Assembly: GCA_950097015.1 (NCBI GenBank)
Contig: CATNEN010000039.1
Location: forward strand, 11,098,001 to 11,162,000
Source of the DNA: Macrostomum hystrix
Lineage: Eukaryota; Animalia; Platyhelminthes
Direction: 5' to 3'
Length of the DNA: 64,000 bases
The notes beneath the pieces were generated by a model that saw only the letters and a program-made list of their open reading frames with translations, was not told the DNA's origin and made no database searches. Position 1 is the first letter of the stretch. Each line of letters begins with the position of its first letter. This document shows, in pieces, positions 11,936-63,479 of the stretch. Both the position numbers and the translations under genes were made by a program.

Positions 11936-12057
11936 AATCTTAGCTTCCGCCCTCAAAATAATTTTTTTGCATAATTCTTTTTTAGCTAAGACCATAGAGT
12001 ACTATTAACTACTCGTAGTAGTATGTTAACTTATGGTTTCTTAAAGTAGGTTTTGTA

Positions 12058-19633: not shown

Positions 19634-19667
19634 GCCAGCAGGTAGCCGCACGGACCCCCCTCCTGGG

Positions 19668-22694: not shown

Positions 22695-22702
22695 GACAGC
22701 TC

Positions 22703-24400
22703 ATGAAACCTCTTGCCCCCTAAAAGCCCACAAAGGCAAAAAATCCGCTCCCTGGTGGAACCCAGCGCTTGGAAACCTCCGGCGCAAGGCCAAATCCCTC
22801 CAGCGGATTGCGCGGAAAAGCAAGGACCCAGCTGACCTGACCGCCTACCAGAATGCGATTCGTGACTTTAAGCGTGACACCAGGAAAGCGAAGTCCGAAA
22901 AGTGGCGCCAATACTGCTCCGAGCTGGAGGGCGCCCGCCCAACTTCTCGTGTTGTAAAAGCGCTCACTCTTGACAAAATGTCGAAGCTCTCAGTGATCAA
23001 AAGACCGGACGGCCGGCTTGCTGAGAATCCTGGCGAATCGCTGGACATCATGCTCGCCAGCGCTTTCCCCGGACCGCGTCGCTTCAGGACCCGCCGGACC
23101 ACACTCCGGGTGGACACATCCTTGCGACCACCATTATCACTAGAGAACGGACAGCTCGCGCTGCTTATTCCTTCTCGCCTTTTAAGTCGCCTGGACCTGA
23201 CAACATTAACCCCGCCTTCGTACATGAAGCGGTGAAAAATGACAGGTTCCTTGGCCTCCTTTGCAACCTGCTCAAGGCCTGTATCACCCTCGGGTACGTA
23301 CCCAGGTCTTGGCAGGAAGCCACTATCGTCTTCATCCCCAAACCTGGGAAGGGAGACTACCACTCCGCCAAAGCCTTCCGCCCCATCAGCTTAACATCTT
23401 TCTTTCTTAAGCTGATTGAAAGGCTTGTTCTTTGGCGCCTCCTTCACGTTGAGCTGAGGAACTCCCCGCTCTCCGCCAACCAGCACACCTTTCGATCCGG
23501 ACGTTTCATCGAAAGTGCTCTGCATGCCATTGTCGACAAGCTGGAGCGCGCCGTGCTTGGCACCGGTTTTGCTCTCTCGCTTTTCCTCGACATTGATGGT
23601 GCTTTCGACAATGTGCTTTTCGGAGCCTATAGGCGAGCCCTGGAGCGCCGGGCTACGCACGAGCACCTCACCCGCTGGATCATGTATATGATCTCTCACC
23701 AAACTGTCACCTCGCACCTGCTTGGCCACTCCCGTTCTGTGAATGTCCAGAAGGGAGGCCCGCAGGGTGGCGTTCTCAGTCCGATCCTATGGATCCTTTG
23801 CTCTGCAGCCCTGACCCGGACTCGGTCCAAAAAATCGGCTATGCTGACGACGTCACAGCCACCGTGGCCGGACCGTCTCCCCCGGTCCTTTGAGACCTTT
23901 TGCAAGCTTTCATCCACCGTGCCGAGCGCTGGGCCCATAGCTGCGGCCTCAAACTCTCTGAGTCCAAGACCGTCGCCATTATGTTCACCAGCAAGCAAAC
24001 GAAACTGGAGGATTGAGCCTCTCCTTCTCTATGACAAACCCATCGCCATGGAGAAGCAAACCAGATGCTTAGGTGTCATCCTCGACCACAGGTTGAGCTG
24101 GACACCTCACGTCAAATTCAAAACTCAGAAAGCTCTTGCGACGCTCGCGCAGATCCGCAGAGCCTTCGGTGCCACCTGGGGCCTCACCCCCCGCCGTCTC
24201 TGGTGGATTTACACTACCATTGTAAGACCGGCCATTTCTTTTGCCGGCTTCATCTGGAATAGTGCCCTGGAGACCAAAGGGGTCTTGGAGGCCCTAAACA
24301 AGGTGCAGTGCCGTGCTTGTCGAGCCATCATGAGTGCGGCACCCTCCCCTCCCTTCGCTGGCATGAATGCATTCCTGGACCTTCCCCCTTTAGATATTTT
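22703..24400 (+). pseudogene. LINE ORF2, reverse transcriptase part (frameshifted)
   Basis: APWWN, FRPISLTS, FLDIDGAFD, PQGGVLSP, GYADD in a shifted frame, LGVILD. Confidence 0.9.
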
Positions 24401-24650
24401 TATAATAATCTACTAGCTTTTTTTGCCGTTGTTTTTGGGGCAGAAATTTAAAGCAAAGCAGTAAGCAATTCACGTCTCTGTATTAACTTTATAGTGAAGG
24501 TCACCATTTATTTATTTACTGCATTAATGAAAAGTGAAGAGTTTGTTTAAGGGCGTTTTAAGTAAAAAATAAGTGAAAAGTTTGTCCAAAGTTTGCCCCC
24601 TCTTGATTACTTCTTTAGAAACATGTCTCTTAGCCACTCCTCTATACAGT

Positions 24651-25074: not shown

Positions 25075-25690
25075 TCACCTCAAGGCCTGGGGATACACCA
25101 CATTCTTCGTTCTTCCCCTTGGTGCGAAAATGAATAGGCCAGCTGGAGTTCCAACACGGGAGCAGGCGACATAAAGCTGCCCATGCGAGAAGCAAGGAGT
25201 CTCCAGGTTGATGCCAGCCACCTTCAGCGACTGTCCCTGAGCCTTGTTAATAGTCATCGCAAAGCACACTCTCACAGGGAACTGCAGTCGCTTGAACTGA
25301 AATGGCAGGTCCGTGGGGATAATTGGAATCCGGGGAACGAACACAGACTCTCCTCTGCCAGATCCAGTCATTATCGTGGCCTCAATCACGTGTGGGAAGA
25401 GCCGCCTGACTATCAGTCTGGTGCCGTTACACAGCCTTGGCGCATTCAGGTTGCGGAGGAGCATAATTGGTGCCCCAACTTTCAGCTGCAAGTTGTGCGA
25501 TGGAGTTCCAGGAGGATCTAGAGAGTTCAGAAACTCAACAGGATACTCCACAGCGGTGTCATCAGTCAACGTTGTATCAATTGACTTGTAGGTGAAAACT
25601 GCACCTGGCAACTCCTGAAGCAGTTGGTAGTTAATTTCGTTGGCGGCATCATTTCTAGGACACAGAATTGCCTTCTCTGACAGCCAGTCA
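25075..25690 (-). pseudogene. Helitron RepHel C-terminal PIF1-like helicase fragment
   Basis: AILCPRN, LKVGAPIMLLRNL, LCNGTRL, FAMTINKAQGQSL, FSHGQLYVACSRV, TKNVVY. Confidence 0.92.
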
Positions 25691-26392
25691 ACGCCAGCCT
25701 CTCTCTTTCTTCTATCCCAGGCTGGCTGGAGAGAAATATCGACCGGAGAGCCCTGCGCACTGGGACGCCACCGCACTCACCGCACTCAGTCTCAGTGCTG
25801 CTTGGGGGCCAGTAGACAGTCTAGGGGTTTGGGCTGTGTACATTCACGGCTTGAAATACAATGTACAGTCTGGGGCTTCGGCGCTCGGGGAAGGGAGGGG
25901 GTGGCTGTAATAAAATTTGGCCCGCAGAGTGGCGGAGGGGAGTTGGGGTGGCTGTCCTCGGAAAACAAAAAGTGACTCACTTTGAGATGATGCAGCTTTG
26001 CTCTGGATTGAGTAGAGATGTTCAAAATTGACAGCATTGTTGGAAAACATGTAAAGTGTAAGTGGATCAAATTTGGAGAAAATCTGACAAAGTGGGGCGA
26101 CGATATGTCGAATTGAGTGATTTTTTGACGATTTTTGAGCAGTTTTTTGCACTTTTGAGCAGGAAGGAAATGATTTTTCGGGAATTTGAGTAGCCTATTG
26201 CACTCAGCGTAGGTGGTTTTAGGTATGTGCAAAGTTTGGTGCGATTTGGTTGAGCGGTTTCGGCGTCTATAAAGACAAAAGGTTGCACACACACACACAG
26301 ACACACACACAGACAGAGTTTTCACTTTTATATATATAGATTATAAAAAAAAAAATAAAAATAAAATAAAAAAAATAAATTAATATTTCTTA

Positions 26393-29740: not shown

Positions 29741-30341
29741 AGTGTTGTGCGTCAGGCACTTTTTTCATTCCACTTAGTTTCAGCCGCCCACCATAGTGTT
29801 CCATTTGTTGATGTGTGCCCTTGTTCTCATCCTCAGTCGAAAACGCTGTCTCTGTTCCATCCCACCGGGCATTTGTTTTGCGGACCCCTCTTGCGATTGT
29901 CGCGAAAACGTGAGTTATTATTAACCAATCCTGTTCTCTGTACACCCTTGTGGTAATCTATTTTCTTACCCCTGTTATCTGCCAGCTCCGCCCTTCTCTA
30001 TCTATTATCGATTTTGTCGCTGTCCCTTTCCGCTAACCCCCCTCCAGTCTAGCGTCTGCCCCCACCTTGTTTTGCTCTCCCTCTGCACGCGTTATCTATC
30101 GTCTGTTAACCCCCCCAATGTACATTCACCCCAGGGTTTTCATACCCTCATTTGTCTCTCCTCGCTGTCGACCCCCTTTCTGTCCTAGCATATCAAAATT
30201 TATATTATACCGTTTCAGGCCCGAGGTAGAGTGGAGTGCTGTCTGCTGGTGCATCGGCGCAAATTATTGCAATTTGACTCATAACTCTAACATAGCGAAA
30301 GTTCAAATTAAATCAATTTATTTACATCGATTTAATGAGTA

Positions 30342-30453
30342 AATAAACAGCGGCCCCAGTGCGTGACAACGACTGTTTTGCGAGCGCCTACCGCCTAGCG
30401 CCTACCGGCGCTCGCAAAACAATCGTTGTCACGCACCGGGGCCGCTGTTTATT
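30342..30453. repeat. 47-bp near-perfect inverted repeat (hairpin) upstream of the Crypton-like ORF
   Basis: aataaacagcggcccc...gcgagcgcc / 18-nt loop / ggcgctcgc...ggggccgctgtttatt. Mirror copy at 63597-63708. Confidence 0.85.
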
Positions 30454-30570
30454 GATTGAGGCAAGCAGGGGAGAAGAGCACATGAAGAGAAATATTAACA
30501 AACCTGGAAGCTTAGACATGGATGCTAGAAGTGTCCATCTTCTAAATTTTAATAATCTTCCTGTCGATAG

Positions 30571-31285
30571 TGTTGTGTCTTGGCCTAATGGCCGACGGAG
30601 GGAGATGGGGGTTGGGTCCACCTGCCCGAGAAACCCAGGTCCCAGACCAACCCTGCCTACGCCTAACAGACCTGATTGGTTCAGCGAGAGTTCACTGAGC
30701 CAACCGCCCTGAGACTAGCGAGAGTTCACTCGTCTCAGGTCCCTAACGGAGCGAGAGTTCACTCAGTACGCCCCACCGGCCCGACGCGGTAATCCCCGGA
30801 ATGAGGAAGACACGAGCTCACCTTGAACGTCTCCACGCAAGCTGATCGGCTCTACTCGTTTATTGCCGGCACTTGAATAACAACTATGATTGGTAGATAG
30901 GCAATGCACAGACTTGCAGAAGGGCAGGTAGGAAGTCGAGGCGGACGGGGTTACAGATAGGGCGGGGCGACTACTTATATAACTTACTATACAGGGCAGA
31001 GAAGAGGGAGAGAGAGAAAAATTAGACACAAAGCCTGGGTCACTGGCGGCTTATCCGGCCGCCAGCCAATGCGAGTGGCCCAGGTGGGGGGAGGGGTAGA
31101 GAGAGGCGGGGCTAGCGCAACGCTGGGGCATGGGCAGGTGGGCGCAGAGAAGAAAAAAAGGGGGGCTAGGCCGGGGTTGAGGCGTAAGCCTCTTACAAAC
31201 CCTGACCTAGGCTGGCACGGGTGTAGGAAGGGGTGGGGCAGACAAACAACGCAGAGGGCACAAAGTGCATTTGCACGGCACAACA
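30571..31285 (-). repeat. 3' LTR, preceded on the minus strand by the PPT ggagggggagga (31286-31297)
   Basis: Direct repeat of 38440-39154 with TG...CA ends. Confidence 0.95.
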
Positions 31286-31508
31286 TCCTCCCCCTCCAAG
31301 AAAAAGAAGAGTAGAAGGGGATACAAAAGCATCGCATGCGAAAAAAAACAACACAGAAAGAAAAATAAAAGGCTCACTACCCGAACGATATAAAAATAGG
31401 GTTTGGACCATAGACTACGAAGCACCTAAACCAGCATGAAAAACAATAGGACAAATTAACCAAGCTAAATAAATTGTCAGCAACAAAGTTACGCAAGAGC
31501 ACGCAAAA

Positions 31509-33227
31509 TTAGTCAAAGAGTCGCCCGAAAAATCGGCTCGCGTTTGTAGCAAAAAGTCGAGTCCAATACTCACGCCCGCAATCACTGTCAGCTAGAGCAT
31601 CTGGCACCAAATTTACGGCGGTCGGGTCCTTGGGGTCTCCACCGAACGGTGAGGCAGATGTCACTAGAAGACGATGTCGCGGAAGTCGCCTAGCCCGTTG
31701 CACTGCTCGCGGGGATCCTCGGCACCGGACTGATGCCTCGAAGAATACACCGTGGCACACGTCCACGAGCACAGTCTCGACGGCTGCCGGCATGTCCAGG
31801 TCCTCAGCCAGCATGATGTACATAGCGTGGAACTCGGGCTGCTGGAGGAATCCTAGGGCGACCGCCCAGGCAGGTTCACCACCGATAACTCGGAACAGGA
31901 CCGGTAGACCGAACTCCTTGGCTAGGAGAAACTGCTCCATTGCTGCCGTCAGCTGATCTTGACGTTGCGAGCCCGCGACGTCCCAATTGAGCTCGACTTC
32001 GCCGACAGCAACGGCACGCGGCCAGCCACCCGTTAGAAATTGTCGCAACTCGTCTCGCAGCGACGGCCACCATGTTGCAGAACTCCCGTTCAGGCCCAGG
32101 GCGAACACGATCCGACTATCTTGCAGCAATGGTTGCACCACGGGACAATCCCGACGTAGGCAGTAAGGTGAGTTCACAATCGCCAAGCATCGACGCACAC
32201 CACGAAGATATTCGGGTTGAATTGGTCGGCCCAGTCTAGTTAGGTACGCCTTGGCATCGACCAGACGTTCCGCAGAGCCGACACCGTGCTGACCGGGGCT
32301 GCTGTCGCGACGCAGCTCCTGGCTGCCAACGACATCGCTGCTGCGACCGACCTCCTGGCTCGCGACGGCTGTTCCCTGCTGTGCAGAGTTTTCGCTGATT
32401 GACGTTGCGGTCGACGACGAATCGCGCAGTCTTGCTGTCGGGGCCTGAGAAAGGTGCGGCCCGTGACCTCGCCCTCCCGGGGACCGCGCAGGGCCGGGAC
32501 CCACTAAGAGAGACAGGGACCGGAGCTTCCTAAGCAAGGGACCCCCCAACTCACGCAACTCAAAGCAACGCACCGCTAGCACAACACACTCAAACGCTGC
32601 CTGCAACACCGAAGGCGGAATCCGCCGACACCTCCCCGACCCAACACCGCGACCACGCTTCCTCCCATACTGATTACACAAAAACGAAGCAGAGACGGCT
32701 AAAAGCCTGGAAAATTGCACCGGCACACTCACACCAATCCCTTCAAGAAACTTTGCCCCCTCGCGCACGACTAGGCAAGCTCCATCACTGTCGCCAACCC
32801 TAAAGCAAGACAAAAGCGCACCTCTCAGCCGCCTACACTCAACAACTGCAGCTGGAGTGGACAACTCGGTTGGGATCTCCACGTGAATTGGAACTTCCTC
32901 AGCGTCATCTTTAAGGCTGGTCAGAGCTAACTTGACATGCTCCGGCAAAGCAACATCCGGTGGAGGATTGAAAAAGTAGGCGTACTTTAACACCCCTTGG
33001 CACGCAGCTTCTCCAACCCGATTGTACACTTCTCGGAACACTGGATCAGTCAAGACACAAAATGCCATCACGTCTCGCTGAGACTCCGGAGACTCTGTCT
33101 CGGCCGATACGACGACGGGCCGTTGAGAGTACATTCGACTACACACTGCCTCAATTTCTGCAGAACTAGCCGTCCGACCCACGCCTATAATGCCATACAA
33201 GTCAGTCGGTGTCTCCTGCGATGACAT
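31509..33227 (-). CDS. Extra Gypsy ORF: DnaJ-like N-terminal domain (no HPD), linker and TatD-like DNase fold (likely inactive)
   Basis: DLYGIIGVGRTASSAEI...AFCVLTDPVFREVYNRVG resembles a J domain. LVDAKAYL, AVGEVELNW, QFLLAKEFGLPVLF, LPRHRLLVTSASPF and TNASRFF follow the TatD motif order. Confidence 0.8.
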   Translation of the reverse strand: MSSQETPTDLYGIIGVGRTASSAEIEAVCSRMYSQRPVVVSAETESPESQRDVMAFCVLTDPVFREVYNRVGEAACQGVLKYAYFFNPPPDVALPEHVKLALTSLKDDAEEVPIHVEIPTELSTPAAVVECRRLRGALLSCFRVGDSDGACLVVREGAKFLEGIGVSVPVQFSRLLAVSASFLCNQYGRKRGRGVGSGRCRRIPPSVLQAAFECVVLAVRCFELRELGGPLLRKLRSLSLLVGPGPARSPGGRGHGPHLSQAPTARLRDSSSTATSISENSAQQGTAVASQEVGRSSDVVGSQELRRDSSPGQHGVGSAERLVDAKAYLTRLGRPIQPEYLRGVRRCLAIVNSPYCLRRDCPVVQPLLQDSRIVFALGLNGSSATWWPSLRDELRQFLTGGWPRAVAVGEVELNWDVAGSQRQDQLTAAMEQFLLAKEFGLPVLFRVIGGEPAWAVALGFLQQPEFHAMYIMLAEDLDMPAAVETVLVDVCHGVFFEASVRCRGSPRAVQRARRLPRHRLLVTSASPFGGDPKDPTAVNLVPDALADSDCGREYWTRLFATNASRFFGRLFD

Positions 33228-33472
33228 GTTGACCCTGCAATTTGTTTTTTTGACGTTAAAAGATTCAATTTACTACCGGTGTCTACCCGATCACCAAAAG
33301 CCATCCCGGATTGCCCGCCCCTAATGCTGAACAATGAAATGTAATGGAATACCGTACGAACGATGACGCAACCTGTCAATGTTATTTTTTTCTTTTATTT
33401 TTTAGTGCATTTTATGAATTTTTTTGTTCTTTTTTTATCTTCTTTTGTGTGGTGTATGTGGGTTTTTTTCGT

Positions 33473-34800
33473 TTAATACAGTATTGGATTACCATATCGT
33501 ATTGGCCGATGACCTCTTTGGGGTCGCAAGCGGCGCGGTGACACTGGAGGTGCGTCGACGGCAGGCGAGTGACGCACAGGTGCCGGTCCCTGGTTACGGT
33601 TTATTAGAGGTACAAAGACGAACTCGTCCGGGTCCCCATCTTCAAAATCGGGCTCCGACTCCTGAGGGGTTCTCTCAGCACCCTCACTCCGCCTCTTTTG
33701 CGCGTTAGACTTCCGTTTCACTTTTCGTAAGCTTTGCAGTCCTGGAGGTCGCTCCGGAACTTTGCGAAGGTTGTTGTAATGCACAGTTTTTGTCTTTTTC
33801 TTATTTTCCAAACGAATTCTGAAATTAACGTCAGAAATTTTTTCAACGACTTTGGCCGGTCCCTTCCAATAGTTGTGGAACTTTGCAGCTTCATTCGGCT
33901 GCAGGGCAGGTGAGTATTCGAGTACGGTATCACCTACTTCAATTGACGGGCCTCTGACTCTAGAATCGTACATAATCTTTTGCTTTCTCTGATATTGCTG
34001 CAGATTTTCCCTTATTCGGAGTGCGCTTCGGCTAGCCTACTCCCTAGGAGCTGCAGGTACTCAGTCACCCGGCATTGACTCTGGTAAATTGCCTATATCA
34101 ACCGGCAGACGCATTTCTTTTGCATAGAGCATGTAGTACGGGGTGTACCCCGTGCCACGATGTACACTACTACGATAGGCAAGAAGTGATGGCGCGATTA
34201 ACTCCTCCCAATCACCCTGAGCTTCGCTTTGACGGCATTTGATCATATACTTTAGAGTTTTGTTAAAACTCTCCGCCTGACCATCGGCCATGGGATGGTA
34301 GGATGTTGTTCGGCATTTCTTTACCGACATCAACTGACACAACTGTTTCACCAACAAAGACTCGAAATTAGTGCCCTTGTCTGTTACAAGAAACTCTGGG
34401 CACCCAAATTGCGCAATCCAGTGATCGAAAATAGCTTTTGCTACAGTGTGCGCCCGCTGATTGGGTAGGGGAACCGCCACAGGCCATTTCGTGAACGAAT
34501 CCTGGATCGTTAGCACGAATCTAGACCCGTTCCGTGATCGGGGCAATGGTCCCACAATGTCAGACATGATTCTCTGGAACGGAGCTTCAGAAACAATTGG
34601 CTTCAAAGGAGCTCGATTGGCCTGTCTTGGCTTAGCTCTAGCACAGTGGATGCAGCTCTTACAGTATTCTTCCACTCTACGCGATAGCCCGGGCCACCAG
34701 AACCTACCTTTTCCTGGGTTTTCTTTACGCCTAGGTGACCTCCTGCTACTCCATCATGCAACTCCCTGGAACACTTTAGAAAATAACGTTGGAGGTAAGA
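33473..34800 (-). pseudogene. Gypsy integrase (zinc finger, DD35E core, GPY/F region), split by frameshifts
   Basis: GGHLG...CKSCIHC, MSDIVGP, TDKGTNF, YHPMADGQAES and WKGPAKV are spread over several frames. Confidence 0.88.
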
Positions 34801-37800
34801 CAATTTTTTTACTCCTCGGTTTCCCGGGCTTCGAAAGTACAGCAACTGAGATTCTTCATGCAGCAGTTGACGATGAGCCCAAAGACCTCGCTCTTCAGTC
34901 GACATCACTACTGGCGGTTGTCCAAATCCCTCAGGATCACTAATGAATGCCTTTACACTGGACAGCTTACTTTCTGCTTCCTGAGCTTGCTGAATTTCCT
35001 TCTTGTCAAGGCTACTACCTAGCACGACGTTTACCACAGGACTGTTAGGCTCGAAAGAGCAGCTAGGACAGCTCTCATGCCCAGAGTGCTTGCGGTATTT
35101 CCTGGATAACGAATCTGCGTTCGAATGGTCTCGGCCAGGTCGATGGATAATTTCGAACTCGTAGTTCTGAAGGGACTCCAACCACCTAGCACACTGTCCC
35201 TCCACATCTCTCAGACTAGTCAGCCATTGCAACGCTTTGTGGTCGCACCTGATAATAAATTTGCGGCCTAAAAGATAATAACGGTATTTCTTCACAAAGT
35301 GCACGATCGCTAGCAGCTCGAGACGGGTAGTGCAGTAATTCTGCTCCGCAGAAGTTATACTTCGTGACCCGTAAGCGATCACCTTCTCCTTTCCATCAAC
35401 CTGTCTTTGAGACAGCACAGCACCAAGGCCTACTCTGGAACTCGCATCCGTGTCCAAAATGAACTCACCGGCCGTAGGGGCGAAGTCCGGAAATGCCATC
35501 ACCTGGAGTGAGCAAAGCGCTGCCTTCAGCTTACAAAATGCACCCTCTTCGTCACCTCCCCATCTAAACTCTGTACCTGCGGCAGTCAAGAGATACAACG
35601 GAGCTGCGATCACAGAGAAGTTTTGAATGAATGTTTGGTAATACGCACAGACGCCGAGAAATGTTTGAACCTTTTTTACACTGCATGGCCTCGGCCAGTT
35701 TTGAATTTCCATGCACTTGTCCGAGTCTGTACCTATCCCACGGGCCGAGATCCTGTGACCTAGAAACTTAATTTCGCTGGCCAGGAAAACACATTTGCTA
35801 GGTTTCAACTTAACATTTGCGGCGCGCAGATGCTGGAATACATGCTCCAGACGCTCGAGGTGTTGTTCCACACTCCTAGCGAAAACGACAATGTCATCGA
35901 AGTAGACCAGACATTCCTTCCAATTTAGGTCTGATAAGGCCATCGACATTAACCGAGTAAATGTCGCTGGTGCATTTCGGAGACCAAAGCTCATGCACTT
36001 CCAAGCGAACTGGCCTCTGTTCGGCACGATAAAAGCAGATTTTAGCTGATCTTTCACCGCTAATGGACACTGATGATATCCGGACGCCAAATCCATCGTC
36101 GAAAAGATGTTGTTGCCTCCCAATGCAACCATTGTCTCATCCATTCTAGGTGGTGGATATGGGTCCGGAACTGTTACCTTATTTAGTCGCCTGTAATCAA
36201 GACACAAACGCAAGCTGCCATCCGGCTTTTTTACCGGAACAATGGGGCTAGCCCAAGGCGAATAGCACGGATAAATTCGATCGGCAGTCAATAACTCATC
36301 TACCTGCTTGTCTACCTCGCCCTTCCAATGAGGCGGAAGCCTCCTAGGAGCCAGATGGATCGGCTTGGCATCACCTGTATCGATTTCGTGCGACAAAAGA
36401 TGACTACATCCTAATTCGGAGTTGTCTTTTGTGAAAGCATCGCGATTCCGAGAGATCAGCTCGATGAACTGGTTCTTTTCACTCTCAGCAAGCCCACATT
36501 TGCCCCACTCCTTGACATCATCCAACGGACTCCAATCCCCGTCTGCTGCGATTGCAGCGTTGACTTGCAATCCGGCTGGTTGTTGGGCTGCGATAGGCGA
36601 GAACCATCCTACTCTCGTTCCTTTTCTCAGGGAGAGATGACAGTCTGAAGTGTTAAGAATTCTCACTGGCATGAATCCTTCATCTCCAGGCTTCTGAACC
36701 GATCTAGCAACCAGGCGCTCATGACTGAATCGCTTTTCAGACTCTACCATTCCTAGAAACTGGACTCCAGCGACTCCGTACCGCTGAACCCTGACCTGGA
36801 CAATCCTTTCTTGCCCTGCACTAAACTGCTCGGATCTACTCAGAATCAGACGGCACAGCCGCGGCTTTTCCGCTGTCAGACGGAACGGATAAACATACGC
36901 GCCTGCCTGCAAGCAAGTTCGAGCAAAATCGATTGACATGCCGTTCTTTAAGAAAAAATCTACACCCAGAATGCACTCAGCAGACAGGTGATCAACAATA
37001 GCAAACTCTTGCTCAAACTCAGTTTCACCAACCTGGAAAGTTAACTTCGCTGTCCCACACACAGGAATGGCCTCACCATTAGCAGCAAAGATTGACCATT
37101 GATTCGGATTCTGGACGACTTGAATTTTCAACTTGTTTTGATTCACAACTTTACGATTAAGAATTGACACGGTAGCACCACTATCCAACAGACACGCTAA
37201 CGAGGGCCCAGAGCCAAACTTGGCATCAAGATAGCCTAACCCAGTTCTACTCAGCACACTCTGGGTCAAGGCTGGAGCCCTCGGAGCACTCGGACTCAAT
37301 GGCGCGGGGGCCCGGGACGCTGACCCAACCGGGCCCCGCTCCCATTTTCCCTGATTACCGCGATTCCAACGCTGATAGCAGCCGTTCCGCAAATGGCCCG
37401 GCTGACCACACTCAAGACAGACGACTGGATTTCTGCACTGGGACGCCACATGTCCCATCTGCAGGCATCGACCACAAGACCTTGGCTGGTGGGGCACCGC
37501 AGATCCCCCCTGCTGAAGGCCCTTCGACTGCTGGACCACTTTTGGCTGTACCATCGGCTTCGAGTTCGCCACGGAAGCTGTACTAGCCTTCAGCTGTGCT
37601 ATTTCGGCTTTTAAAGCTGCAATCTCAGCTACCTCCTCGCTCCGTTGAGCTACGGGCTGGCTCTCTATCATGTGGACTCCTCGACTAGACCCTCCTCTGT
37701 CTTCCAGTAACTTCATGTAGGCCATGGTTTGGCGAACTCTCTGGAATGCCTCTTGCAGAGTCTCTGGGTTGTGCATTAGCACACCCTCTAGCACTCGAGT

Positions 37801-38277
37801 CGGTACTTTAATACCTTTTAAGAAACGATCCTTAGCCAGTTCATCCCGCTGGGCTGCTGTTAAGTTAGGATAAGCTTTTCTCATGAGCTCCCTAAGCGAG
37901 TCAGCGAAGTCTTCAATCGCCTCTCCCTCTTTCTGGTTTCGGCCTTGAAATTCTAATTTGTAGTCTTGAGCAGTCCTATTCTGACAGAAACGAGCCTCTA
38001 ATCGCTCGATAAACTCCTCATACGTTAAGTCGTCATCCAGCTCCATGTTCGCTACGGCCTTAAATGCAGTCCCAAAGTCAAGAAGGCTTATCAAAGTCTG
38101 TCGACGCTGATCCTGCGCAATCTGCGCTGCATCACAGTATACTGTGAACTGTTGCAACCACAGAGTGAAATCCTGCGATGTTACGTACTTATTTGGCCGT
38201 GGTACGCGTTGAGCTACATTTAACTGATTTTGAATGCGCACTGTCAGGGCGTCGATTAGATCATCCAAATTAGCCAT
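34603..38277 (-). CDS. Gypsy gag-pol polyprotein (gag with 2 CCHC knuckles, protease, RT, RNase H); goes out of frame near 34800
   Basis: CGRCLQMGHVASQC, CLECGQPGHLRNGC, LLDSGA, YFDDIVV, LDTDAS, CDHKAL. Likely start MANLDD at 38277. Confidence 0.93.
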   Translation of the reverse strand: MANLDDLIDALTVRIQNQLNVAQRVPRPNKYVTSQDFTLWLQQFTVYCDAAQIAQDQRRQTLISLLDFGTAFKAVANMELDDDLTYEEFIERLEARFCQNRTAQDYKLEFQGRNQKEGEAIEDFADSLRELMRKAYPNLTAAQRDELAKDRFLKGIKVPTRVLEGVLMHNPETLQEAFQRVRQTMAYMKLLEDRGGSSRGVHMIESQPVAQRSEEVAEIAALKAEIAQLKASTASVANSKPMVQPKVVQQSKGLQQGGSAVPHQPRSCGRCLQMGHVASQCRNPVVCLECGQPGHLRNGCYQRWNRGNQGKWERGPVGSASRAPAPLSPSAPRAPALTQSVLSRTGLGYLDAKFGSGPSLACLLDSGATVSILNRKVVNQNKLKIQVVQNPNQWSIFAANGEAIPVCGTAKLTFQVGETEFEQEFAIVDHLSAECILGVDFFLKNGMSIDFARTCLQAGAYVYPFRLTAEKPRLCRLILSRSEQFSAGQERIVQVRVQRYGVAGVQFLGMVESEKRFSHERLVARSVQKPGDEGFMPVRILNTSDCHLSLRKGTRVGWFSPIAAQQPAGLQVNAAIAADGDWSPLDDVKEWGKCGLAESEKNQFIELISRNRDAFTKDNSELGCSHLLSHEIDTGDAKPIHLAPRRLPPHWKGEVDKQVDELLTADRIYPCYSPWASPIVPVKKPDGSLRLCLDYRRLNKVTVPDPYPPPRMDETMVALGGNNIFSTMDLASGYHQCPLAVKDQLKSAFIVPNRGQFAWKCMSFGLRNAPATFTRLMSMALSDLNWKECLVYFDDIVVFARSVEQHLERLEHVFQHLRAANVKLKPSKCVFLASEIKFLGHRISARGIGTDSDKCMEIQNWPRPCSVKKVQTFLGVCAYYQTFIQNFSVIAAPLYLLTAAGTEFRWGGDEEGAFCKLKAALCSLQVMAFPDFAPTAGEFILDTDASSRVGLGAVLSQRQVDGKEKVIAYGSRSITSAEQNYCTTRLELLAIVHFVKKYRYYLLGRKFIIRCDHKALQWLTSLRDVEGQCARWLESLQNYEFEIIHRPGRDHSNADSLSRKYRKHSGHESCPSCSFEPNSPVVNVVLGSSLDKKEIQQAQEAESKLSSVKAFISDPEGFGQPPVVMSTEERGLWAHRQLLHEESQLLYFRSPGNRGVKKLSYLQRYFLKCSRELHDGVAGGHLGVKKTQEKVGSGGPGYRVEWKNTVRAASTVLELSQDRPIELL

Positions 38278-38418
38278 GGCTACAAAAGCAAACACAATGC
38301 TCCAGCACAGCGACACGGACACCGAGACAGACAAAATACACTGAGACCACAGACTAATTACCTACCGAGCCAATCCACGCCCCCACAAACACATACGCTA
38401 GGACACGGGAAGACTGGA

Positions 38419-38436
38419 ATCCTGGTCACGGCACCA
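38419..38436 (-). promoter_or_regulatory. Primer binding site complementary to tRNA-His
   Basis: TGGTGCCGTGACCAGGAT lies 3 nt inside the 5' LTR boundary and matches the tRNA-His 3' end pattern. Confidence 0.85.
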
Positions 38437-38439
38437 CTT

Positions 38440-39154
38440 TGTTGTGTCTTGGCCTAATGGCCGACGGAGGGAGATGGGGGTTGGGTCCACCTGCCCGAGA
38501 AACCCAGGTCCCAGACCAACCCTGCCTACGCCTAACAGACCTGATTGGTTCAGCGAGAGTTCACTGAGCCAACCGCCCTGAGACTAGCGAGAGTTCACTC
38601 GTCTCAGGTCCCTAACGGAGCGAGAGTTCACTCAGTACGCCCCACCGGCCCGAGGCGGTAATCCCCGGAATGAGGAAGACACGAGCTCACCTTGAACGTC
38701 TCCACGCAAGCTGATCGGCTCTACTCGTTTATTGCCGGCACTTGAATAACAACTATGATTGGTAGATAGGCAATGCACAGACTTGCAGAAGGGCAGGTAG
38801 GAAGTCGAGGCTGACGGGGTTACAGATAGGGCGGGGCGACTACTTATATAACTTACTATACAGGGCAGAGAAGAGGGAGAGAGAGAAAAATTAGACACAA
38901 AGCCTGGGTCACTGGCGGCTTATCCGGCCGCCAGCCAATGCGAGTGGCCCAGGTGGGGGGAGGGGTAGAGAGAGGCGGGGCTAGCGCAACGCTGGGGCAT
39001 GGGCAGGTGGGCGCAGAGAAGAAAAAAAGGGGGGCTAGGCCGGGGTTGAGGCGTAAGCCTCTTACAAACCCTGACCTAGGCTGGCACGGGTGTAGGAAGG
39101 GGTGGGGCAGACAAACAACGCAGAGGGCACAAAGTGCATTTGCACGGCACAACA
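38440..39154 (-). repeat. 5' LTR
   Basis: Direct repeat of 30571-31285, followed by the TSD atag. Confidence 0.95.
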
Positions 39155-39158
39155 ATAG

Positions 39159-40728
39159 CTTAAATGCTTTGTCCCAGTCCGAGTTGGATCTCGTGGCCGA
39201 ACTGTCGCGCAACGACTGCCGTCGTGACGAGCTAGTGACCCAGTTCTTGTTGTTTTGTGAGAACTCCATCGGCGACAAAGCGAACTCATCTGATCTGCCT
39301 GCTGATATTCGTGAAAAACTTACCAGCATCGATGAAGCTGAGATGGAAAGTCTACCTCAAAGCAGTCGGAAACTGATGGAGAATCATGGGCGCAAGTTTG
39401 TCGAATTTCTGAATTCATGGTCGCGGTCTGAACTCCGATTTGGATATTTGAATATCATTGTGAAGAGACAGAAAAATCTGGTTGCTACTGGGACCGTGTT
39501 TGATGGCTGAAACAGGATGCTCGAATTCAAGGTCCGTGAATTTATCAAGTCTGGCAAGACAGTTCAAAGCTACGATCCAATCGAGGAGGGAGACATGGTT
39601 AAATTGCGCGACTACTTTGATCGTAGTGACGGAGAACGACTCCAAGATGAATTGCTATTCAATCTCATGTATCAGCTTGGAGAGCGTGGACGGGAGCACA
39701 TGAAGACGTTTCTGAATCGGAACTTTCTGGTGCGAGGTGTCGACTCGGATGGACGGCAGTATGCCTGTTTGCCGACGCTACCATCGAAGAATCGATTAGC
39801 AACACTGGGCGCTGGTCAGGTCACCGATTGGAAGCACGCTAGAATATATGATCTTGAGCTGCTAGAACTGTACGAGTCGGTGATTCCGGATTCCGGCGAC
39901 CACTTTCTACCTCGTCCTATGGAGAGCACCATAAGGAAGAAGTTTATCTTCTCTGATAAGACACACCGTGGTCTGCGTTATTTACAAGAGTTCATGAAGA
40001 ACCTATGAATAAGCAATTATGAGTGTGAGACTCACATCTCAAAGCTTCAGTGCAGGAGCATATCTACGAAGCAGTGTATTTTATATTCAAGCGATAAGGC
40101 ACAGTGTTTAGCAGTAGGGGGGTCAGAGAGAGAGATATAACAGATAACACACAAGCAGTTATCTCTCTGCCCCGCGTTGCCATGGTCCCCAACCCAACAC
40201 ACCAGCCGCGAGAATTCTAGGCACGAGTTCGCAGGCTGATAGGGTGCATAGGTTCTCGGTCTCTGCGTCATTGCTTTCCAGGCCGTCAGGTCAGCCGGTC
40301 TGGCTCGCTCAGGTCTATTTTGAGCGCTGGGTGGGTCGAAATGCAGATGAAGGTCGCTGATTGAAAGGAGCACCGATGTAAGCGCTTTTCAAACGCTTAC
40401 AAAAAGTAAAAGCATAATTGTTTGTTCAGCTTTCTGAACAAGACACCATTGCATCTTTAGAGTCACGCGCATTTGCGACTTGGAAAGCGAAGGGCATGCT
40501 GTCCACGACATCATGCTTGTGACGGGTCCCAAGTCGGAGGCGACCGTTCGGCGATATCTGCATAAGAGGCGTGATCGCAGTTTGTACAAGTCCTCTGTGA
40601 ACGTGCATACCGCCATGAAGAAGTATTTGGATTGTATGGATCGTACTGAGGCTGCGCCGTCCATTAGTGGAGATGAGGAGTTTCATCGGGTCCAAGGCCC
40701 ACCAGAAAAAAAATCCGAATCCAAGTGA
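39159..40728 (+). pseudogene. Crypton-like (DUF3504/KCTD1-type) tyrosine recombinase remnant; its first codons lie at 30518-30570, before the Gypsy insertion
   Basis: PIEEGDMVKLRDYF...LQDELLFNLMYQLGERGRE...DSDGRQY and IMLVTGPKSEATVRRY. Removing the Gypsy restores the reading LPVDSLNALSQ. Confidence 0.75.
40005..40429. mobile_element. Small TIR element inserted in the Crypton-like ORF
   Basis: Ends tgaataagcaattatg / cataattgtttgttca with a possible 2-bp CT duplication. Removal restores KNLSEQ. Confidence 0.55.
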
Positions 40729-40892
40729 ACGGCAGTTCGAACATCATTGATTTATTTTTTGAATAGCTTTAATGACTGCATTGACTGAAAGTTAACTTTT
40801 GTTGGTGTTCATTTGAGGCATTCATCACATAGGTTTCGTCTATGTTCGTTATTCGTCTAGGTTCAATGCCGAATGGCAAACAAACAATGAAT

Positions 40893-43800
40893 TGTAACGC
40901 ATAAAAACTACAAACAATGATCGTCAAATTGCAATACAATCGAAAGGATCGCGCGCAGAATAAAACATGAGTGGAGCCCCCTCTCCTAGCAATTTGTGCA
41001 TATCACTTTAAGACGATCTGAAACCTCAACGAGTGGTCTTCAATACATAACAATGGTGTCGCAACGTCTTAGAGAACTATCGCTCGAGGAACCCGAGCGC
41101 GCCCAAACGTGGCTAATGGCTTTTCGGGAACTGGCTCGTGTGAAGGAGTGGTCCGACGTCGAGGACAAGAAACGTGTCGCGGACAACTTCCTGGCAACCT
41201 GCGGACTCCGCACGCTGGAGAAACTGCAGGACCTCGTTTCGCCCCGGTGCATTGACGAGTTAACGTTTGCTCAAATTGAGGCAGCCATCATCGGCTACTT
41301 GCGCCCAAAGGAAAAACTCACCATCGCCGAACGCACTCGATTCTTCAACGTTCGCCAAGCGGCGGACGAATCCATCTATAACTTCGTTGGCAGGCCCCGG
41401 CACGCCGTCACCGATTGTAAGTTCGATTCTCTCCGCAGCTGCGAGAGCCCATCGGAGGAAATGATACGGATGGCACTCATCGCTGGCCTGCGAAACCCAC
41501 GCGAACAGCAAAGGGTTCTGGAGGCCATGCAGGCCAAGGATCTACCAATCCCCGAGATAATTGATTTGGTTCGCAACATGGAGCAGGCGACAGCGTTCGT
41601 CACCAAATCGACGGGGGTTGCCGCCGGCACCATGGTCGGTTTGGGTGTGCCGCAGACCATGGCAATCCATTCTGACGAGGCCACGTTGCACTACACGAAG
41701 CCGCGGTCGTCGGAGCACCAGCGTGTGTCGCGCCGGCGTCGCCCCCTCGAGGTCTGTACACCATGCCGGCGTCCCTGAGGGTGCCACCGCTGTGCAGGCC
41801 CCGGAAGCTTTACTTTATCTCTCCGATTCCGCATCCATCCACACCATTTACACGGTCACGGAGCCCGTCTTCGTGCTCGACAAGAAACTTCTGATGCAAG
41901 TCGACACTGGGGCAGCCGTGTCCGTGCTGTCGAGTGTTCAGTGGGACGCCTTGGGCGCCCCCAATTGCTGAGATGCTCCAAGCGGTTGGAGGCCTTTGAC
42001 GGCCACGTCATGCAGACACTGGGCAAACTGTCGACGACCGTGGAGCTACGCGGGTGCATCCATCCAGCGGAGCTGACCTTCGTCGCCTCTAACAAGTCCT
42101 ACGGATTACTAGGTCGAGACCTCCTCAGCTCGGATGGCCTCTTCCATACGACTCCGTGTGCGGTGGGCAATCCCATTGCTGTGGATCCGCTACCGGCGAT
42201 CAAAAGCGTTAAGGCTCAAATGGAGCTGGTGGATGGGGCAAGGAACCAGTTCTGCCGCGCTCGACCCGTTGGAGAAGCAAATCAACGCGGAGCTCGATCG
42301 TCTATATCAGCTCGGTGTCATCGAGCCAATTGAGGGACCCGTCAACAACGCGTCACTCGTCGTTTGGGTAAAGAAGAAGGATTGCACGCTGCGGATGTGC
42401 GCTGACTATAGCGTGCACGTGAACGCCAAAATCAAATCGGACTCTTACTTGATTCCCAACGTGGAAAGCATCTTCGCTCGCTTGAAGAACGCATCGAAAT
42501 TCGCCACCGTCGACCTGCGCTCTGCCTACTGGCAAATTGAGCTCGATGATGCCGCAAAGGATCTTTCCGTCATAAACACTTCACGCGGGCTGTTCCGCGT
42601 GAATCGGTTGCAAATGGGGATGAAGAACGCCTTATTTATATTCCAGCGGACTATGGAAGCAATGCTCGGCGACATCAAGGGACTCTTGATTTACCAAGAC
42701 GACATTCTCGTATTTGCGCCCGATCAGGCCACCCTGGAGAAGCGTCTGGGCGCTGTGCGAAAGCGCCTCGCCGAAAAGCATGTTACGATCAACGAGTCTA
42801 AATGCATGTCATTGCGACTCAGTTTCCTTTTTCGGTTTCCGCATCTCGGCTGCCGGCATCCAGCCGGACGATCGCCTGGTAGACAAGATTCGGCATGTCT
42901 GCGCACCCACCAACAAAACAGAATTGGCCAGCTTTCTGGGCCTGATTAACTTTTTTGGACGCCTCATCCCCAATTTCGCTGGGAAGACAGTGCCTCTCAA
43001 TTGACTACGGAAGGCCGACGTTCCGTTTGAATGGTCTGACAAATGTTCTGCTGCTTTCGACAACATGAAGCGCGAGCTCGCGCTCACACCAATCGTGTAA
43101 CCGAACAGTCTGACAAAAGAATTGACTTTGACCACGGACGCATCGAAAGGTGCCCTCGCCGCCGTAGCTATGCAGGACGGCCACCCCGTCATCTACGTGT
43201 CTCGCACTCTCTCACTTGCCGAATCCAGCTATTCCAACATAGAGCGGGTAGCCCTTGCAATATTCTGGGGCGTCATACGTCTAAGGCATTTTCTTCATTG
43301 CAGGCGATTCACGATCCAAACAGATCACCAGCCTCTGCTGCGGCTATTTGGATCCGGCATCCCACTAAACACGTCAGTTGGAATCGGCCACTGGGTCAAA
43401 TCTCTGATGCAGTTCGACTTCGACATGCGATACATCCCCGGATCCGCCATCCCCCACGTAGATGCACTGCGCCGTCTGCGCTTCGACAACGCGACGACCG
43501 ACACCGAAGACATCTTCGAGGCCATAATCGCAGTTGCGTTCGAAACACCCCAGATCGCCGCCAGGAGGGTTGCCTCCGAGATGGAACTCGATGGTTTCAC
43601 TCGGAAAATCATTACTCGTGTTCGCTCCGGCAATTGCAAGCAGTGCACCCAGGCTGAGTTGCCCTTCATGAACTTTGCCGAGAAGTTAACGCTCGAAAAT
43701 GGTTTTCCTTTCATGCACCGCCGGGTTTACATCCCAACCCGCCTACGCCGGGCTGCTTTCAACGCGATTCACGACACGCACTCTGGCGTACATGCCTCGT

Positions 43801-43905
43801 ACAATCTGTTATCCGCATCCTGCTGGTGGCCGGGAATACAGCAAGATGTCGATCATTTTGTCCGTCGCTTTCGACAACATGAAGCGCGAGCTCGCGCTCA
43901 CACCA
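40893..43905 (+). mobile_element. Second, decayed and 3'-truncated Gypsy (Mag-like): putative short LTR, gag, PR, RT, RNase H and integrase start
   Basis: VDTGAAVS, LRMCADYS, YQDDIL, TTDAS, IQTDHQPL, IHDTHSG..WWPG, with stops and frameshifts. The TG..CA segment 40893-41052 followed by aTGG is a tentative LTR/PBS. Confidence 0.85.
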
Positions 43906-43924
43906 AGAGCACCGAGCTCTGTTC

Positions 43925-44583
43925 TGAGGGGACATTGGTTCTCTGCTTCTGAGGGAATATCGGTTCTCTGCTGTTTGGGGGACATTGATTATTTGCTGTT
44001 TGGGGGACACTGGTTCTTTACTGCCGGGGGGACATTAGTTATTTGCTGCCGGAGGATGGCATTGGTTATTTGCTGCCGGGGGATGGCATTGGTTATTTGC
44101 TGCCGGGGGATGGCATAGGTTATTTACTGCCGGGGGATGGCATTGGTTATTTGCTGCCGGGGGATGGCATTGGTTATTTACTGCCGGGGGATGGCATAGG
44201 TTATTTACTGCCGGGGGATGGCATTGGTTATTTACTGCCGGGGGATGGCATTGGTTATTTGCTGCCGGGGGATGGCATTGGTTATTTGCTGCCGGGGGAT
44301 GGCATAGGTTATTTACTGCCGAGGGATGGCATTGGTTATTTGCTGCCGGGGGATGGCATTGGTTATTTGCTGCCGGGGGATGGCATTCAGACTAACTATT
44401 TATAAATTCAGTGAGAATTATAATTCTTGTTGAATCGCAATCACGTATATTCGCAATCAGGGAAAATCATACTGACGAAATGAGTTTTTGATTCTTTTAC
44501 TTTCAGGTGTGTTTTGTTCTTCTGCAATACACAAGATTTTTTGTCTGAACAGTAGTGCCCCCAAGGGGGGCTAAGTGTGCTAG
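43925..44583 (+). mobile_element. 3' end of a Helitron-like element with a 27-bp minisatellite (ggggatggcattggttatttgctgccg)
   Basis: Hairpin gccccc-aa-ggggggc followed by taagtgtgCTAG|T. Tandem array at ~44030-44387. Confidence 0.7.
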
Positions 44584-45767
44584 TTTCACGTTTATAAATC
44601 AAAACCTTTTCTTTAAATTTTAATGCATCTTTTCAAACGTTTATTACTTTGCAAATGTTTCTGCTCTTCTATTGCAAAGTTGTGAGAAATAGAAGACAAG
44701 ACGTAAAGTAGCCTAGCGCACTTAAATCCTTGCTAATTTTATGCTCGTATGTCAATGCATAGTACCCAGTTTATCCTTGGCTGCTGTCGCAAATACTCCA
44801 GAGGCAGCTCTCAGGACCAATGCACCATGATTTATTCCAGCAAAGACATTCAGGTGCACAAGGTGCGGCGAGCACGGTAGCCATCACTGAAAGAAGGCTG
44901 AGAAGCAGAATTAGCAGTTGCATATTTCCGATTGTCCTGGATCTTTCGGTCGAGGTCGAAGCTGATTTGTAAAGATGTGATTCTTTTTACAGCTTTTATT
45001 GTCTGCAAAGCTCATAAATCAGGAACCAGGGCGTCACGCGTACCATTTAAGCAATGCGATTCCTATATTAGAGCACTAAATTAAATTCAAAAAGTACTCA
45101 GTTTTCCTTCTCCAATGCGAAAACTTGCAAGGACTTTCAGGATTTGTCCAGAACTGCAGGAGTATTCAAGATCCAGATTGGCAGTAAACATCGTGTAGAG
45201 TGCAACACCAGGAAAGTATAGTCGTTCCAGTCCGACAACTGGAAACAAAACTATGAGTAAATGATTACTGCTCCTAAAACAACAACCTGTGCTTGAAAAA
45301 CTGGCGATTCAAGCGATTGCTACCAAGGCGTGGCTAAGCACAAGACAGAAATAATGACTCGGAAATCAATCAGACCGCTGGTCACAGAGATTTTAGACGC
45401 AATCGAGCGCAACCAACCAGGGCGTGGCACAAGTTAATTAAATTCAGTAGAAACTATCTCGAGCTCTGAATTTTTGCCTACCTGTATTATCTTTGTAAAA
45501 AAAATCCCGTATCGATTTGCTTGCCTGAACCAAACGCCTGCTCGAAATAGAATCGAAAACGAGGCGTTGACAAGCTCGCCCTTACTTGTGACATGCAAAA
45601 TGTAAATGCGTTATCAATGCAGATTTCTTTCGGTTTCTGGTCAATTATTGAAAAAATATTGGCAACTACAATGGAGCTCCATACCCAGGCCCTTAATATT
45701 TGACACGCTTCTCTGCAGAAACGCAGCCAAAGCTAACTGTTCATAGGCATTAATTGTGCGTCACTCG

Positions 45768-45810
45768 TATATATACACTGGCTATTTCTACCGTTCTACT
45801 CAGCTCAGTA
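45768..45810 (+). promoter_or_regulatory. Putative TATA box and initiator for the spliced GPCR
   Basis: tatatata followed ~30-38 nt later by tcagct/tcagt, then a CAG|GTAAGT donor at 45839 and a TTTGCAG| acceptor at 45948. Confidence 0.4.
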
Positions 45811-45965
45811 CTGCACATTCTTCTAAACTTGACTGCAGGTAAGTGCGCGTAATCACTGCTAAAGTCCATCTGCGTATTTCTGCCTGTTTTTTATGTTTAT
45901 ACTGCGGTTCCTGTCATAGAACTAAGATATAGTTAATGCAATTTGCAGGTACATTATTTGACGTA

Positions 45966-47192: not shown

Positions 47193-47779
47193 TTGCGAAA
47201 GCTCCCAGTGCAACTTTCAATAACAGTGAAATGGAAATGTTGATTATCAAACTAGACCGCTTATCCCCATCTAATTATAGTGCAATAGAAATAATTGAAT
47301 TATTAGTTCCCTGTGGATATTCGGACTAAATCATGCAACTTTAGTCGGATTGTTGGAATTAAGCGGACTTTTCCTGATGTGACCTGACTTCGCTTGTTTC
47401 TGTTTTTATGTTTTTGAAGACTTTATGTTTTGCGTCGATATTATATTTTTCAGAATTGGAATGTTTGTGTACATGTAACGCTAGTTTTTGCACTCTTTCT
47501 AACCCTGATAGGCTGGTCGTCCCTGGCCCCCTCCCCCTCTCTCTCTGCCCCACCCCAATCAGCTTTATAAGCAACATGCATCGTTTTTATTAAAGTTTTG
47601 AAGCGTATGCTTCTGTCTGAACAAGATAATAAATTGAGTTGACGGCAATTTCATGACAGCCAACAAACGACAAATCAGAGTTGACATGTCTTGACACTCC
47701 TATCTTGTGCATGCTTGTCTTGAGAGTCCGAGGCAACAGTTTTTTCTTAGAAACTAAATAATACATTTTAGCCCTCTCC

Positions 47780-51366: not shown

Positions 51367-51429
51367 CTTGAATACAGTCATATGAGATCCTTTTTTTGGC
51401 TTGTTCAGTGTTCACTTCTCCCTCAGCTA

Positions 51430-62764: not shown

Positions 62765-63479
62765 TGTTGTGCCGTGCAAATGCACTTTGTGCCCTCTGCG
62801 TTGTTTGTCTGCCCCACCCCTTCCTACACCCGTGCCAGCCTAGGTCAGGGTTTGTAAGAGGCTTACGCCTCAACCCCGGCCTAGCCCCCCTTTTTTTCTT
62901 CTCTGCGCCCACCTGCCCATGCCCCAGCGTTGCGCTAGCCCCGCCTCTCTCTACCCCTCCCCCCACCTGGGCCACTCGCATTGGCTGGCGGCCGGATAAG
63001 CCGCCAGTGACCCAGGCTTTGTGTCTAATTTTTCTCTCTCTCCCTCTTCTCTGCCCTGTATAGTAAGTTATATAAGTAGTCGCCCCGCCCTATCTGTAAC
63101 CCCGTCCGCCTCGACTTCCTACCTGCCCTTCTGCAAGTCTGTGCATTGCCTATCTACCAATCATAGTTGTTATTCAAGTGCCGGCAATAAACGAGTAGAG
63201 CCGATCAGCTTGCGTGGAGACGTTCAAGGTGAGCTCGTGTCTTCCTCATTCCGGGGATTACCGCGTCGGGCCGGTGGGGCGTACTGAGTGAACTCTCGCT
63301 CCGTTAGGGACCTGAGACGAGTGAACTCTCGCTAGTCTCAGGGCGGTTGGCTCAGTGAACTCTCGCTGAACCAATCAGGTCTGTTAGGCGTAGGCAGGGT
63401 TGGTCTGGGACCTGGGTGTCTCGGGCAGGTGGACCCAACCCCCATCTCCCTCCGTCGGCCATTAGGCCAAGACACAACA
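62765..63479 (+). mobile_element. Solo LTR of the J-like/TatD-like Gypsy element
   Basis: Single 715-bp LTR flanked by the TSD ctat on both sides (62761-62764, 63480-63483), at the mirrored insertion site. Confidence 0.95.

Follow-up and report, generated by a model that had tools for sequence, protein, structure and literature searches.

A Gypsy retrotransposon of Macrostomum hystrix carries a probable conserved accessory gene with J-like and TatD-like folds that lack their catalytic motifs

Results

A Ty3/Gypsy element with an additional open reading frame

We analyzed a stretch of 64,000 nucleotides from the flatworm Macrostomum hystrix (contig CATNEN010000039.1, positions 11,098,001 to 11,162,000, forward strand), here called the window. 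A Ty3/Gypsy long terminal repeat (LTR) retrotransposon lies on its minus strand at 30571-39154 and carries, besides gag and pol, an additional open reading frame, ORF3 (protein P0001), which starts 245 nt past the integrase stop and ends 223 nt ahead of the LTR. By sequence ORF3 derives from the J and TatD families, yet it fails the catalytic tests of both, and it is probably a conserved accessory gene. The coordinates of the features are given in Table 1.

The element has the structural features of Ty3/Gypsy retrotransposons, namely paired LTRs with TG...CA ends, a target-site duplication, a primer-binding site and a polypurine tract, and Pfam searches of the three pol frames recovered the domain order gag-protease-reverse transcriptase (RT)-RNase H (RH)-integrase. 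The gag-pol frame encodes a PNMA/Ty3 capsid-like gag, two CCHC knuckles, the protease, RT (YFDD) and RH, and departs from the true frame within the zinc-binding domain of the integrase. The two LTRs are identical at 713 of 715 sites (two differences) and ATAG stands on both sides of the element, bearing out the near-identical LTRs and ATAG duplication reported in an earlier reading of this DNA from its letters alone (the sequence-only reading). We take the primer-binding site to match tRNA-His; no tRNA genes were found in the window. The element has no canonical heat-shock element in its LTR or elsewhere, so the heat response of some families of Macrostomum lignano gives no direct link.

ORF3 is a separate sense-strand frame between the integrase and the 3' LTR, as is typical of non-env ORF3 cargo. 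Its length is far beyond chance: when the region was resampled 2000 times (first-order), no frame as long arose (longest 354, against 586). No hydrophobic segment was found in ORF3 (best 19-residue Kyte-Doolittle mean 1.49, with a polar N-terminus), and Pfam detected no env family among the proteins of the element. We therefore rejected an env identity for ORF3, which has no signature of a signal peptide or transmembrane anchor by hydropathy, in agreement with the sequence-only reading.

Table 1. Features of the ORF3-bearing element and its solo LTR in the window
Feature	Position	Strand	Basis or remarks
5' LTR	38440..39154	-	715 nt, TG...CA ends; TATA-like box at LTR nt 305-311; AATAAA at 422-427
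3' LTR	30571..31285	-	715 nt, TG...CA ends
Target-site duplication ATAG, left	30567..30570	.	sequence
Target-site duplication ATAG, right	39155..39158	.	sequence
Primer-binding site, TGGTGCCGTGACC, presumably tRNA-His-like	38419..38436	-	starts 3 nt internal to 5' LTR
Polypurine tract	31286..31297	-	adjoins 3' LTR; sequence
gag-protease-RT-RH, single open frame	34606..38277	-	ORF list and Pfam
Integrase (H2C2, rve, C-terminal SH3-like), split over several frames	33473..34830	-	Pfam, sequence
ORF3 (P0001), 572 codons open	31509..33227	- (sense strand of the element)	ORF list, resampling
J-like domain (aa 8-78), HPD replaced (R36-P37-V38 in that loop)	32994..33206	-	NCBIfam, PDB, Pfam
Conserved middle region (aa 79-165), no known family; 71% identical to M. 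lignano models	32733..32993	-	Pfam, alignment
Candidate phase-0 intron GTGAGT...TTTCTCAG, 288 nt, stop-free (codons 166-261, in-frame GT-AG)	32445..32732	-	inferred
Ser/Gly/Pro-rich linker (aa 262-316)	32280..32444	-	alignment
TatD-fold TIM barrel (aa ~320-570), 1 of 7 active-site residues kept (E410)	31518..32270	-	profiles, Atlas, model
Candidate splice donor in leader (TAG|GTAATT)	38356..38361	-	consensus-based inference
Candidate splice acceptor TTGCAG, 7 nt ahead of ORF3 ATG	33235..33240	-	sequence; M. lignano models
Solo LTR of the same element, same site in inverted duplicate	62765..63479	+	ATAG on both sides

The J-like domain

The N-terminus of ORF3 has the sequence pattern of a J domain over about 70 residues. 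Residues 8-78 matched DnaJ in NCBIfam (PRK14299, E 8.9e-6), and J-proteins made up 20 of the 26 matches in a PDB search with this part, including all of the first 16. The DnaJ model of Pfam matched the single sequence weakly (model positions 1-62 of 63, E 0.09). On these matches the J-like assignment of the N-terminus, also made in the sequence-only reading, holds. The HPD motif is absent, and its place is taken by RPV in this ORF3 and by RPR in the M. lignano models described below. HPD is essential for the stimulation of Hsp70, which is abolished by changes in the motif (PMC13254874). Pseudo-J-domain proteins such as Pam16 bind partners without HPD, and the HPD-less ICP22 of HSV-1, a viral J mimic, still recruits Hsc70 (PMC13254874).

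Between the J-like domain and the barrel lies the middle region, for which we found no Pfam family over aa 70-176. The only match in the PDB, to Pml1 (E ≥ 0.067), was treated as chance.

The TatD-like barrel

A profile built only from three ORF3-type sequences found TatD in 11 of its 12 PDB matches (best E 6.8e-5), and an Atlas search with the barrel returned TatD in 30 of 30 matches, at 0.93; the full ORF3 protein gave no usable match there. The homology extends across the whole barrel, the TatD model of Pfam being matched over positions 26-251 of 253 (E 3e-4). A structure model of the barrel (pLDDT 83.7), built on an alignment that held three true TatDs, has the TIM-barrel amidohydrolase fold and matched Staphylococcus aureus YcfH (Foldseek E 2.8e-11; Z 28.2 and rmsd 2.2 with 238 residues aligned to 6l25). 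The top ten rows of that comparison were TatD-type, and the closest structures belong to Group II (YcfH/YjjV-type). The TatD assignment of the C-terminal ~250 residues, as the sequence-only reading had it, therefore holds on profile and model evidence.

The active site is another matter. Compared with intact TatDs, one of seven residues is kept (H5>K, H7>Y, H58>N, E90 kept, H126>R, H152 lost, D203 lost), and neither an HxH nor a (G/A)xN motif is present. HxH has become KxY, the histidine of GxHP is an asparagine, the next histidine is Arg446, and the last histidine and the aspartate are gone. This places Lys326 and Arg446 at metal-ligand positions, beside the retained Glu410. Judged by these residues, nuclease activity of the barrel is unlikely. 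Because HPD is absent and six of the seven TatD residues are replaced, those roles proposed in the sequence-only reading that would require nuclease activity or canonical activation of Hsp70 are not supported.

Relatives and conservation

A HMMER scan of 1.84 billion proteins (E ≤ 0.001) gave six matches: three M. lignano gene models (P0002, P0003 and P0005), the Logan fragment P0004 and two ordinary TatDs. Four of the six are thus ORF3-type relatives, and the frame occurs beyond this copy. P0002 (UniRef A0A1I8I457) and P0005 (UniRef A0A1I8HEH7) are both named 'J domain-containing protein', and both are chimeric gene models that contain this ORF3. Identity to P0002 and P0003 is 80% over aa 1-75, 71% over aa 76-166 and 81-82% over aa 317-550, and P0004 is 50% identical over the second half of the barrel. 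The order of J-like followed by TatD-like domain is found in the relatives as well. Wherever the ORF3-type relatives cover the motifs they show the same losses, at ~81% and at 50% identity, and R446 and E410 are present also in P0002 and P0004.

Sixty residues at the beginning of P0005 (aa 11-70) match the LTR of the M. hystrix element read in frame (49%, E 5e-7). Since P0005 opens with a translated LTR, the link between ORF3 and such an LTR extends to a diverged ORF3. These relatives support the earlier proposal of an accessory gene of a retrotransposon lineage. The description of the element as young applies to the insertion; the gene itself is not young.

No close donor with an intact catalytic site was found in the 1.84-billion-protein scan; the TatD donor may be bacterial or animal. 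A word-index search with the full ORF3 confirmed none of 7996 candidates, long gene models falling outside its length range. Likewise, none of 250 pattern matches in viral contigs and none of 70 in metagenome contigs proved to be a relative of ORF3.

Contigs of run X2 identical to 31501-32943 have a depth of ~126, about five times the value of 24 elsewhere in the element, depth not being copy number. These contigs branch at both 32943 and 31501, where different sequence begins 8 nt past the ORF3 stop, and there may be a second locus or element that has the barrel without this J-like part. Three loose-end motifs of the X2 contigs are absent from the window. A splice or spliced-leader junction at the 32943 branch was rejected by eye for its poor acceptor context.

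Candidate introns

ORF3 is similar to the M. lignano models as far as codon 165, the very point at which a phase-0 GTGAGT (32732) stands, and is so again downstream of a phase-0 TTTCTCAG (32445). Because the homology breaks exactly at this in-frame GT-AG pair, the product is likely to be spliced and about 476 residues long rather than 572. The sequence-only reading was right about the position and the open frame of a 572-codon ORF between the integrase and the polypurine tract and 3' LTR, and probably wrong about its product, which would lose a 96-codon intron. Past the candidate intron, the alignment of the P0003 linker with aa 262-316 was beaten by 1 of 1000 shuffles. Upstream of ORF3, the three M. 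lignano models, whose leading sequences are unlike one another, converge just ahead of the matching methionine, which fits a common acceptor. Spliced mRNAs are the typical source of ORF3 products (PMC5408684).

Run X12, which is only guessed to be RNA, contributed one contig of 185 nt that we do not take as evidence of expression. Runs X5 and X8 cover ORF3 and not gag-pol, a hole that proves nothing.

A broken integrase in a recent insertion

The integrase frame shifts at least three times (five by eye), so this copy is not an autonomous element with an intact integrase, while gag-RT-RH and ORF3 are uninterrupted in the same copy. A 5.5-kb contig of run X2, free of gaps, carries identical letters across the broken integrase and does not support an assembly error as the cause, though the DNA itself may stem from X2. 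Given the near-identity of the LTRs (2 differences in 715 sites) and the open frames of gag-RT-RH and ORF3, the lesions are probably older than the insertion, and the copy was then likely integrated by the integrase of another element. Open gag-RT-RH and ORF3 beside a broken integrase may fit a copy moved in trans; a local cause may also apply.

Contigs of run X5 also show an empty-site junction, and the insertion therefore looks polymorphic. A solo LTR of the element occupies the same site in the second arm of an inverted duplication (see below); either the region was duplicated recently and a solo LTR then formed, or the pattern is an effect of assembly.

The surrounding window

The inverted duplication measures 11 kb and is 99.6% identical (38440-49430 vs 52490-63479, and 30050-31285 vs 62765-64000). 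The element sits in a decayed plus-strand reading frame (30347-30570 and 39157-40728), the pieces of which had no match in Pfam; a motif in the last piece (39157-40728) recalls, we presume, tyrosine recombinases of the Crypton type. A second, frameshifted Gypsy element is present in both arms (40990-43952, minus strand; 57967-60929, plus strand). It has no ORF3-like match, and its RT/RH is 30-33% identical to that of the ORF3-bearing element.

Other frames were labeled from motifs and are to be taken as presumptive. An open 347-residue frame at 12130-13173 (-) resembles a mariner transposase, and pieces at 18464-24416 (+) and 25075-25776 (-) look like a non-LTR retrotransposon (endonuclease, RT) and a Helitron-type PIF1 helicase. 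Single-exon frames at 5100-6482 (+), 45933-46922 (-) and 54997-55986 (+) resemble G-protein-coupled receptors, the one at 45933-46922 being duplicated in the inverted arm. Minisatellite arrays are numerous (600-15000, 43900-44400, 48560-53400 and 57450-58000), with units of 8, 16, 20-27, 36 and 53 nt.

Discussion

We consider it probable, at roughly 85%, that ORF3 is a conserved accessory gene in which both folds are disarmed. It has likely been under selection for long in a Macrostomum Gypsy lineage and is likely spliced. Several observations weigh against this. As a single sequence ORF3 scores below the curated Pfam cut-offs for both DnaJ (13.3, cut-off 27.8) and TatD (20.7, cut-off 27). The confident barrel model came from an alignment with true TatDs in it and is for that reason not independent evidence of a TatD fold, and a single-sequence model (pLDDT 46.5, uninformative) had no Foldseek match at E ≤ 0.001. 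The retained E410 corresponds to Glu112 of TATDN1, the sole residue whose loss lowers both activities of that enzyme and by itself cripples it, while single losses of His or Asp are mild (PMC10085689), so the barrel could have residual activity. As for splicing, the P0002 linker alignment is not significant (101 of 1000 shuffles reach it), and the M. lignano gene models used to call the intron are chimeric. A 96-codon intron came out free of stops in just 363 of 5000 resamples. In four of four runs (contigs only, run kinds guessed or unknown) neither candidate intron showed a spliced joint, and contigs in these runs cross both candidate acceptors unspliced. Finally, P0002 and P0003 match neither this LTR nor gag-pol, which leaves the LTR link in one of three M. 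lignano models.

The closest known systems are the non-env ORF3s of Juno and Vesta in bdelloid rotifers, which encode a DEDDy exonuclease or a GDSL esterase (PMC5408684). In both cases a Gypsy-type element of an invertebrate has, in its env slot, a captured cellular enzyme fold as a separate, family-specific ORF3; one rotifer ORF3 type has a 3'-5' exonuclease fold, and both rotifer domains can be fused in one ORF3. The M. hystrix ORF3 differs in its folds, J-like and TatD TIM barrel, and in having lost its catalytic residues, whereas the rotifer ORF3s keep theirs. Neither 'TatD' nor 'DnaJ' occurs in PMC5408684. Compared with TatD/YcfH/TATDN nucleases (PF01026; PMC10085689), among which we count QatD (PMC13434339), the C-terminal part retains the whole (beta/alpha)8 barrel, the motif order and the glutamate of GE. 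Unlike these nucleases, it has neither HxH nor (G/A)xN, has lost the four other His/Asp ligands, falls below the Pfam cut-off, and belongs to a retroelement protein that also has a J-like domain.

The N-terminal part resembles the pseudo-J (type IV) proteins Pam16 and DNAJB13, in which the J pattern is recognizable and HPD is replaced, and J proteins or mimics of viruses (SV40 T antigen, HSV-1 ICP22) are a precedent for J modules in mobile genomes (PMC13254874). Unlike all of these, ORF3 is encoded by an LTR retrotransposon and has no G/F region or client-binding domains; the J domain of T antigen, moreover, is functional. CERV of the Caenorhabditis elegans element Cer1 (PMC10309623) is likewise a Gypsy-type accessory protein made from a spliced mRNA, splicing here being predicted; the function of CERV has been demonstrated, whereas that of ORF3 is only predicted.

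A catalogue of M. lignano LTR retrotransposons (Mag, CsRN1, Gmr1/Osvaldo and Mdg3/Micropia) lists 137 families (PMC12801592), among which the element or its relatives may be found. In the text of that paper 'orf', 'dnaj' and 'tatd' do not occur, nor do 'tatd' and 'orf3' in its five supplements (figures held as pictures lay outside the search); 13 occurrences of 'dnaj' in the supplements are transcript annotations. The terms 'tatd', 'dnaj' and 'macrostomum' are likewise absent from the accessible text of an env survey (PMC13524379). Full-text literature searches, with Repbase, Dfam, the 2020 M. lignano classification paper, subscription journals and bioRxiv supplements outside their scope, returned no description of TatD or J domains as a retrotransposon ORF3 in the text they reached. 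Non-env ORF3 cargo is a known class; the combination of J-like and TatD-like domains is apparently unpublished.

The retention of both folds after the loss of catalysis points to binding roles, and we lean toward ORF3 being a non-catalytic adaptor, as its residues suggest. In the mechanism that we propose, an mRNA from the 5' LTR would be spliced in the manner of env from the leader donor (38361) to the acceptor ahead of the ATG, and removal of the second intron (32732-32445) would yield a protein of ~476 residues. The barrel would no longer bind two metals. With K326 and R446 beside E410, its pocket might bind a nucleic-acid end, a phosphate or a nucleotide without cutting, and the J-like hairpin might dock on a chaperone or J-protein of the host and leave the ATPase of Hsp70 unstimulated, by analogy with Pam16-type pseudo-J domains. 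That the adaptor shields or escorts the RNA or cDNA of the element against host processing or silencing is a reading to which we give slightly less than even chances. We are doubtful of a bolder version, in which ORF3 is a multiply spliced double pseudo-enzyme in the style of complex retroviruses, with a dead barrel that holds RNA or cDNA ends, an HPD-less J domain that jams or redirects Hsp70 and J-proteins, and modules swapped between elements. If this holds, ORF3 would be the first case of an LTR retrotransposon that encodes a counter-defence protein aimed at chaperones.

Four other explanations were weighed against the adaptor. The J-like part could be a chaperone decoy that occupies Hsp70 or host J-proteins and blunts the chaperone-dependent loading of PIWI/Argonaute, the barrel then being a scaffold or a passenger open to exchange. 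HPD-less viral J mimics such as HSV-1 ICP22 exist (PMC13254874) and conservation is equally high in the J-like domain and the barrel (80% vs 81%), but a passenger barrel need not be conserved down to 50% identity, the LTR is without a canonical heat-shock element, and the X2 contig branches at 32943 and 31501 hint at a form of the barrel without this J-like part; we regard the decoy as unlikely.

An active nuclease is less likely again. Here the barrel would have a rebuilt site (E410 with acids such as E412, E475 and D476) and trim the 3' ends of cDNA, primers or small RNAs, tethered by the J-like part. Every ORF3-type sequence that reaches E410 retains it, an 'EDL' motif close to the lost histidine is common to ORF3, P0002 and P0004, and nuclease ORF3s are known, such as the DEDDy ORF3s of bdelloid rotifers (PMC5408684). 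Set against this, five histidines and the C-terminal aspartate are all replaced together, HxH and (G/A)xN are missing, an arginine stands at a metal-ligand position, and the enzymatic bdelloid ORF3s keep their invariant residues (PMC5408684).

We think it improbable that ORF3 is instead a regulator like Rev or CERV, made from spliced RNA, whose dead barrel binds unspliced genomic RNA and promotes its export or packaging. The genomic RNA would indeed carry introns, given the candidate donor, acceptor and second intron; C. elegans Cer1 meets the same problem with the spliced CERV protein (PMC10309623), and TatD folds bind ends of RNA or single-stranded DNA. The splice sites here, however, are candidates, and the most basic stretch (aa 167-240) falls inside the candidate intron. 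It is very improbable that ORF3 came from the recent capture of a host pseudogene, or arose as a chimera by chance, and is a functionless passenger in this copy: this would suit the small number of relatives (four ORF3-type among six matches in 1.84 billion proteins), but domain order and motif losses are identical at 20% and 50% divergence, P0005 carries a related LTR, ORF3 is uninterrupted beside a broken integrase, and the search for relatives turned up no close donor with its catalytic site intact.

Apart from Gag, Pol and Env, few retrotransposon proteins act on the host, and most of these are uncharacterised. The M. lignano relatives carry a warning for annotation, in that gene models named 'J domain-containing' in this species can be retrotransposon ORF3s. 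Since RNA interference and transgenesis are available in Macrostomum, a chaperone-directed or end-protecting counter-defence by an animal retrotransposon becomes testable.

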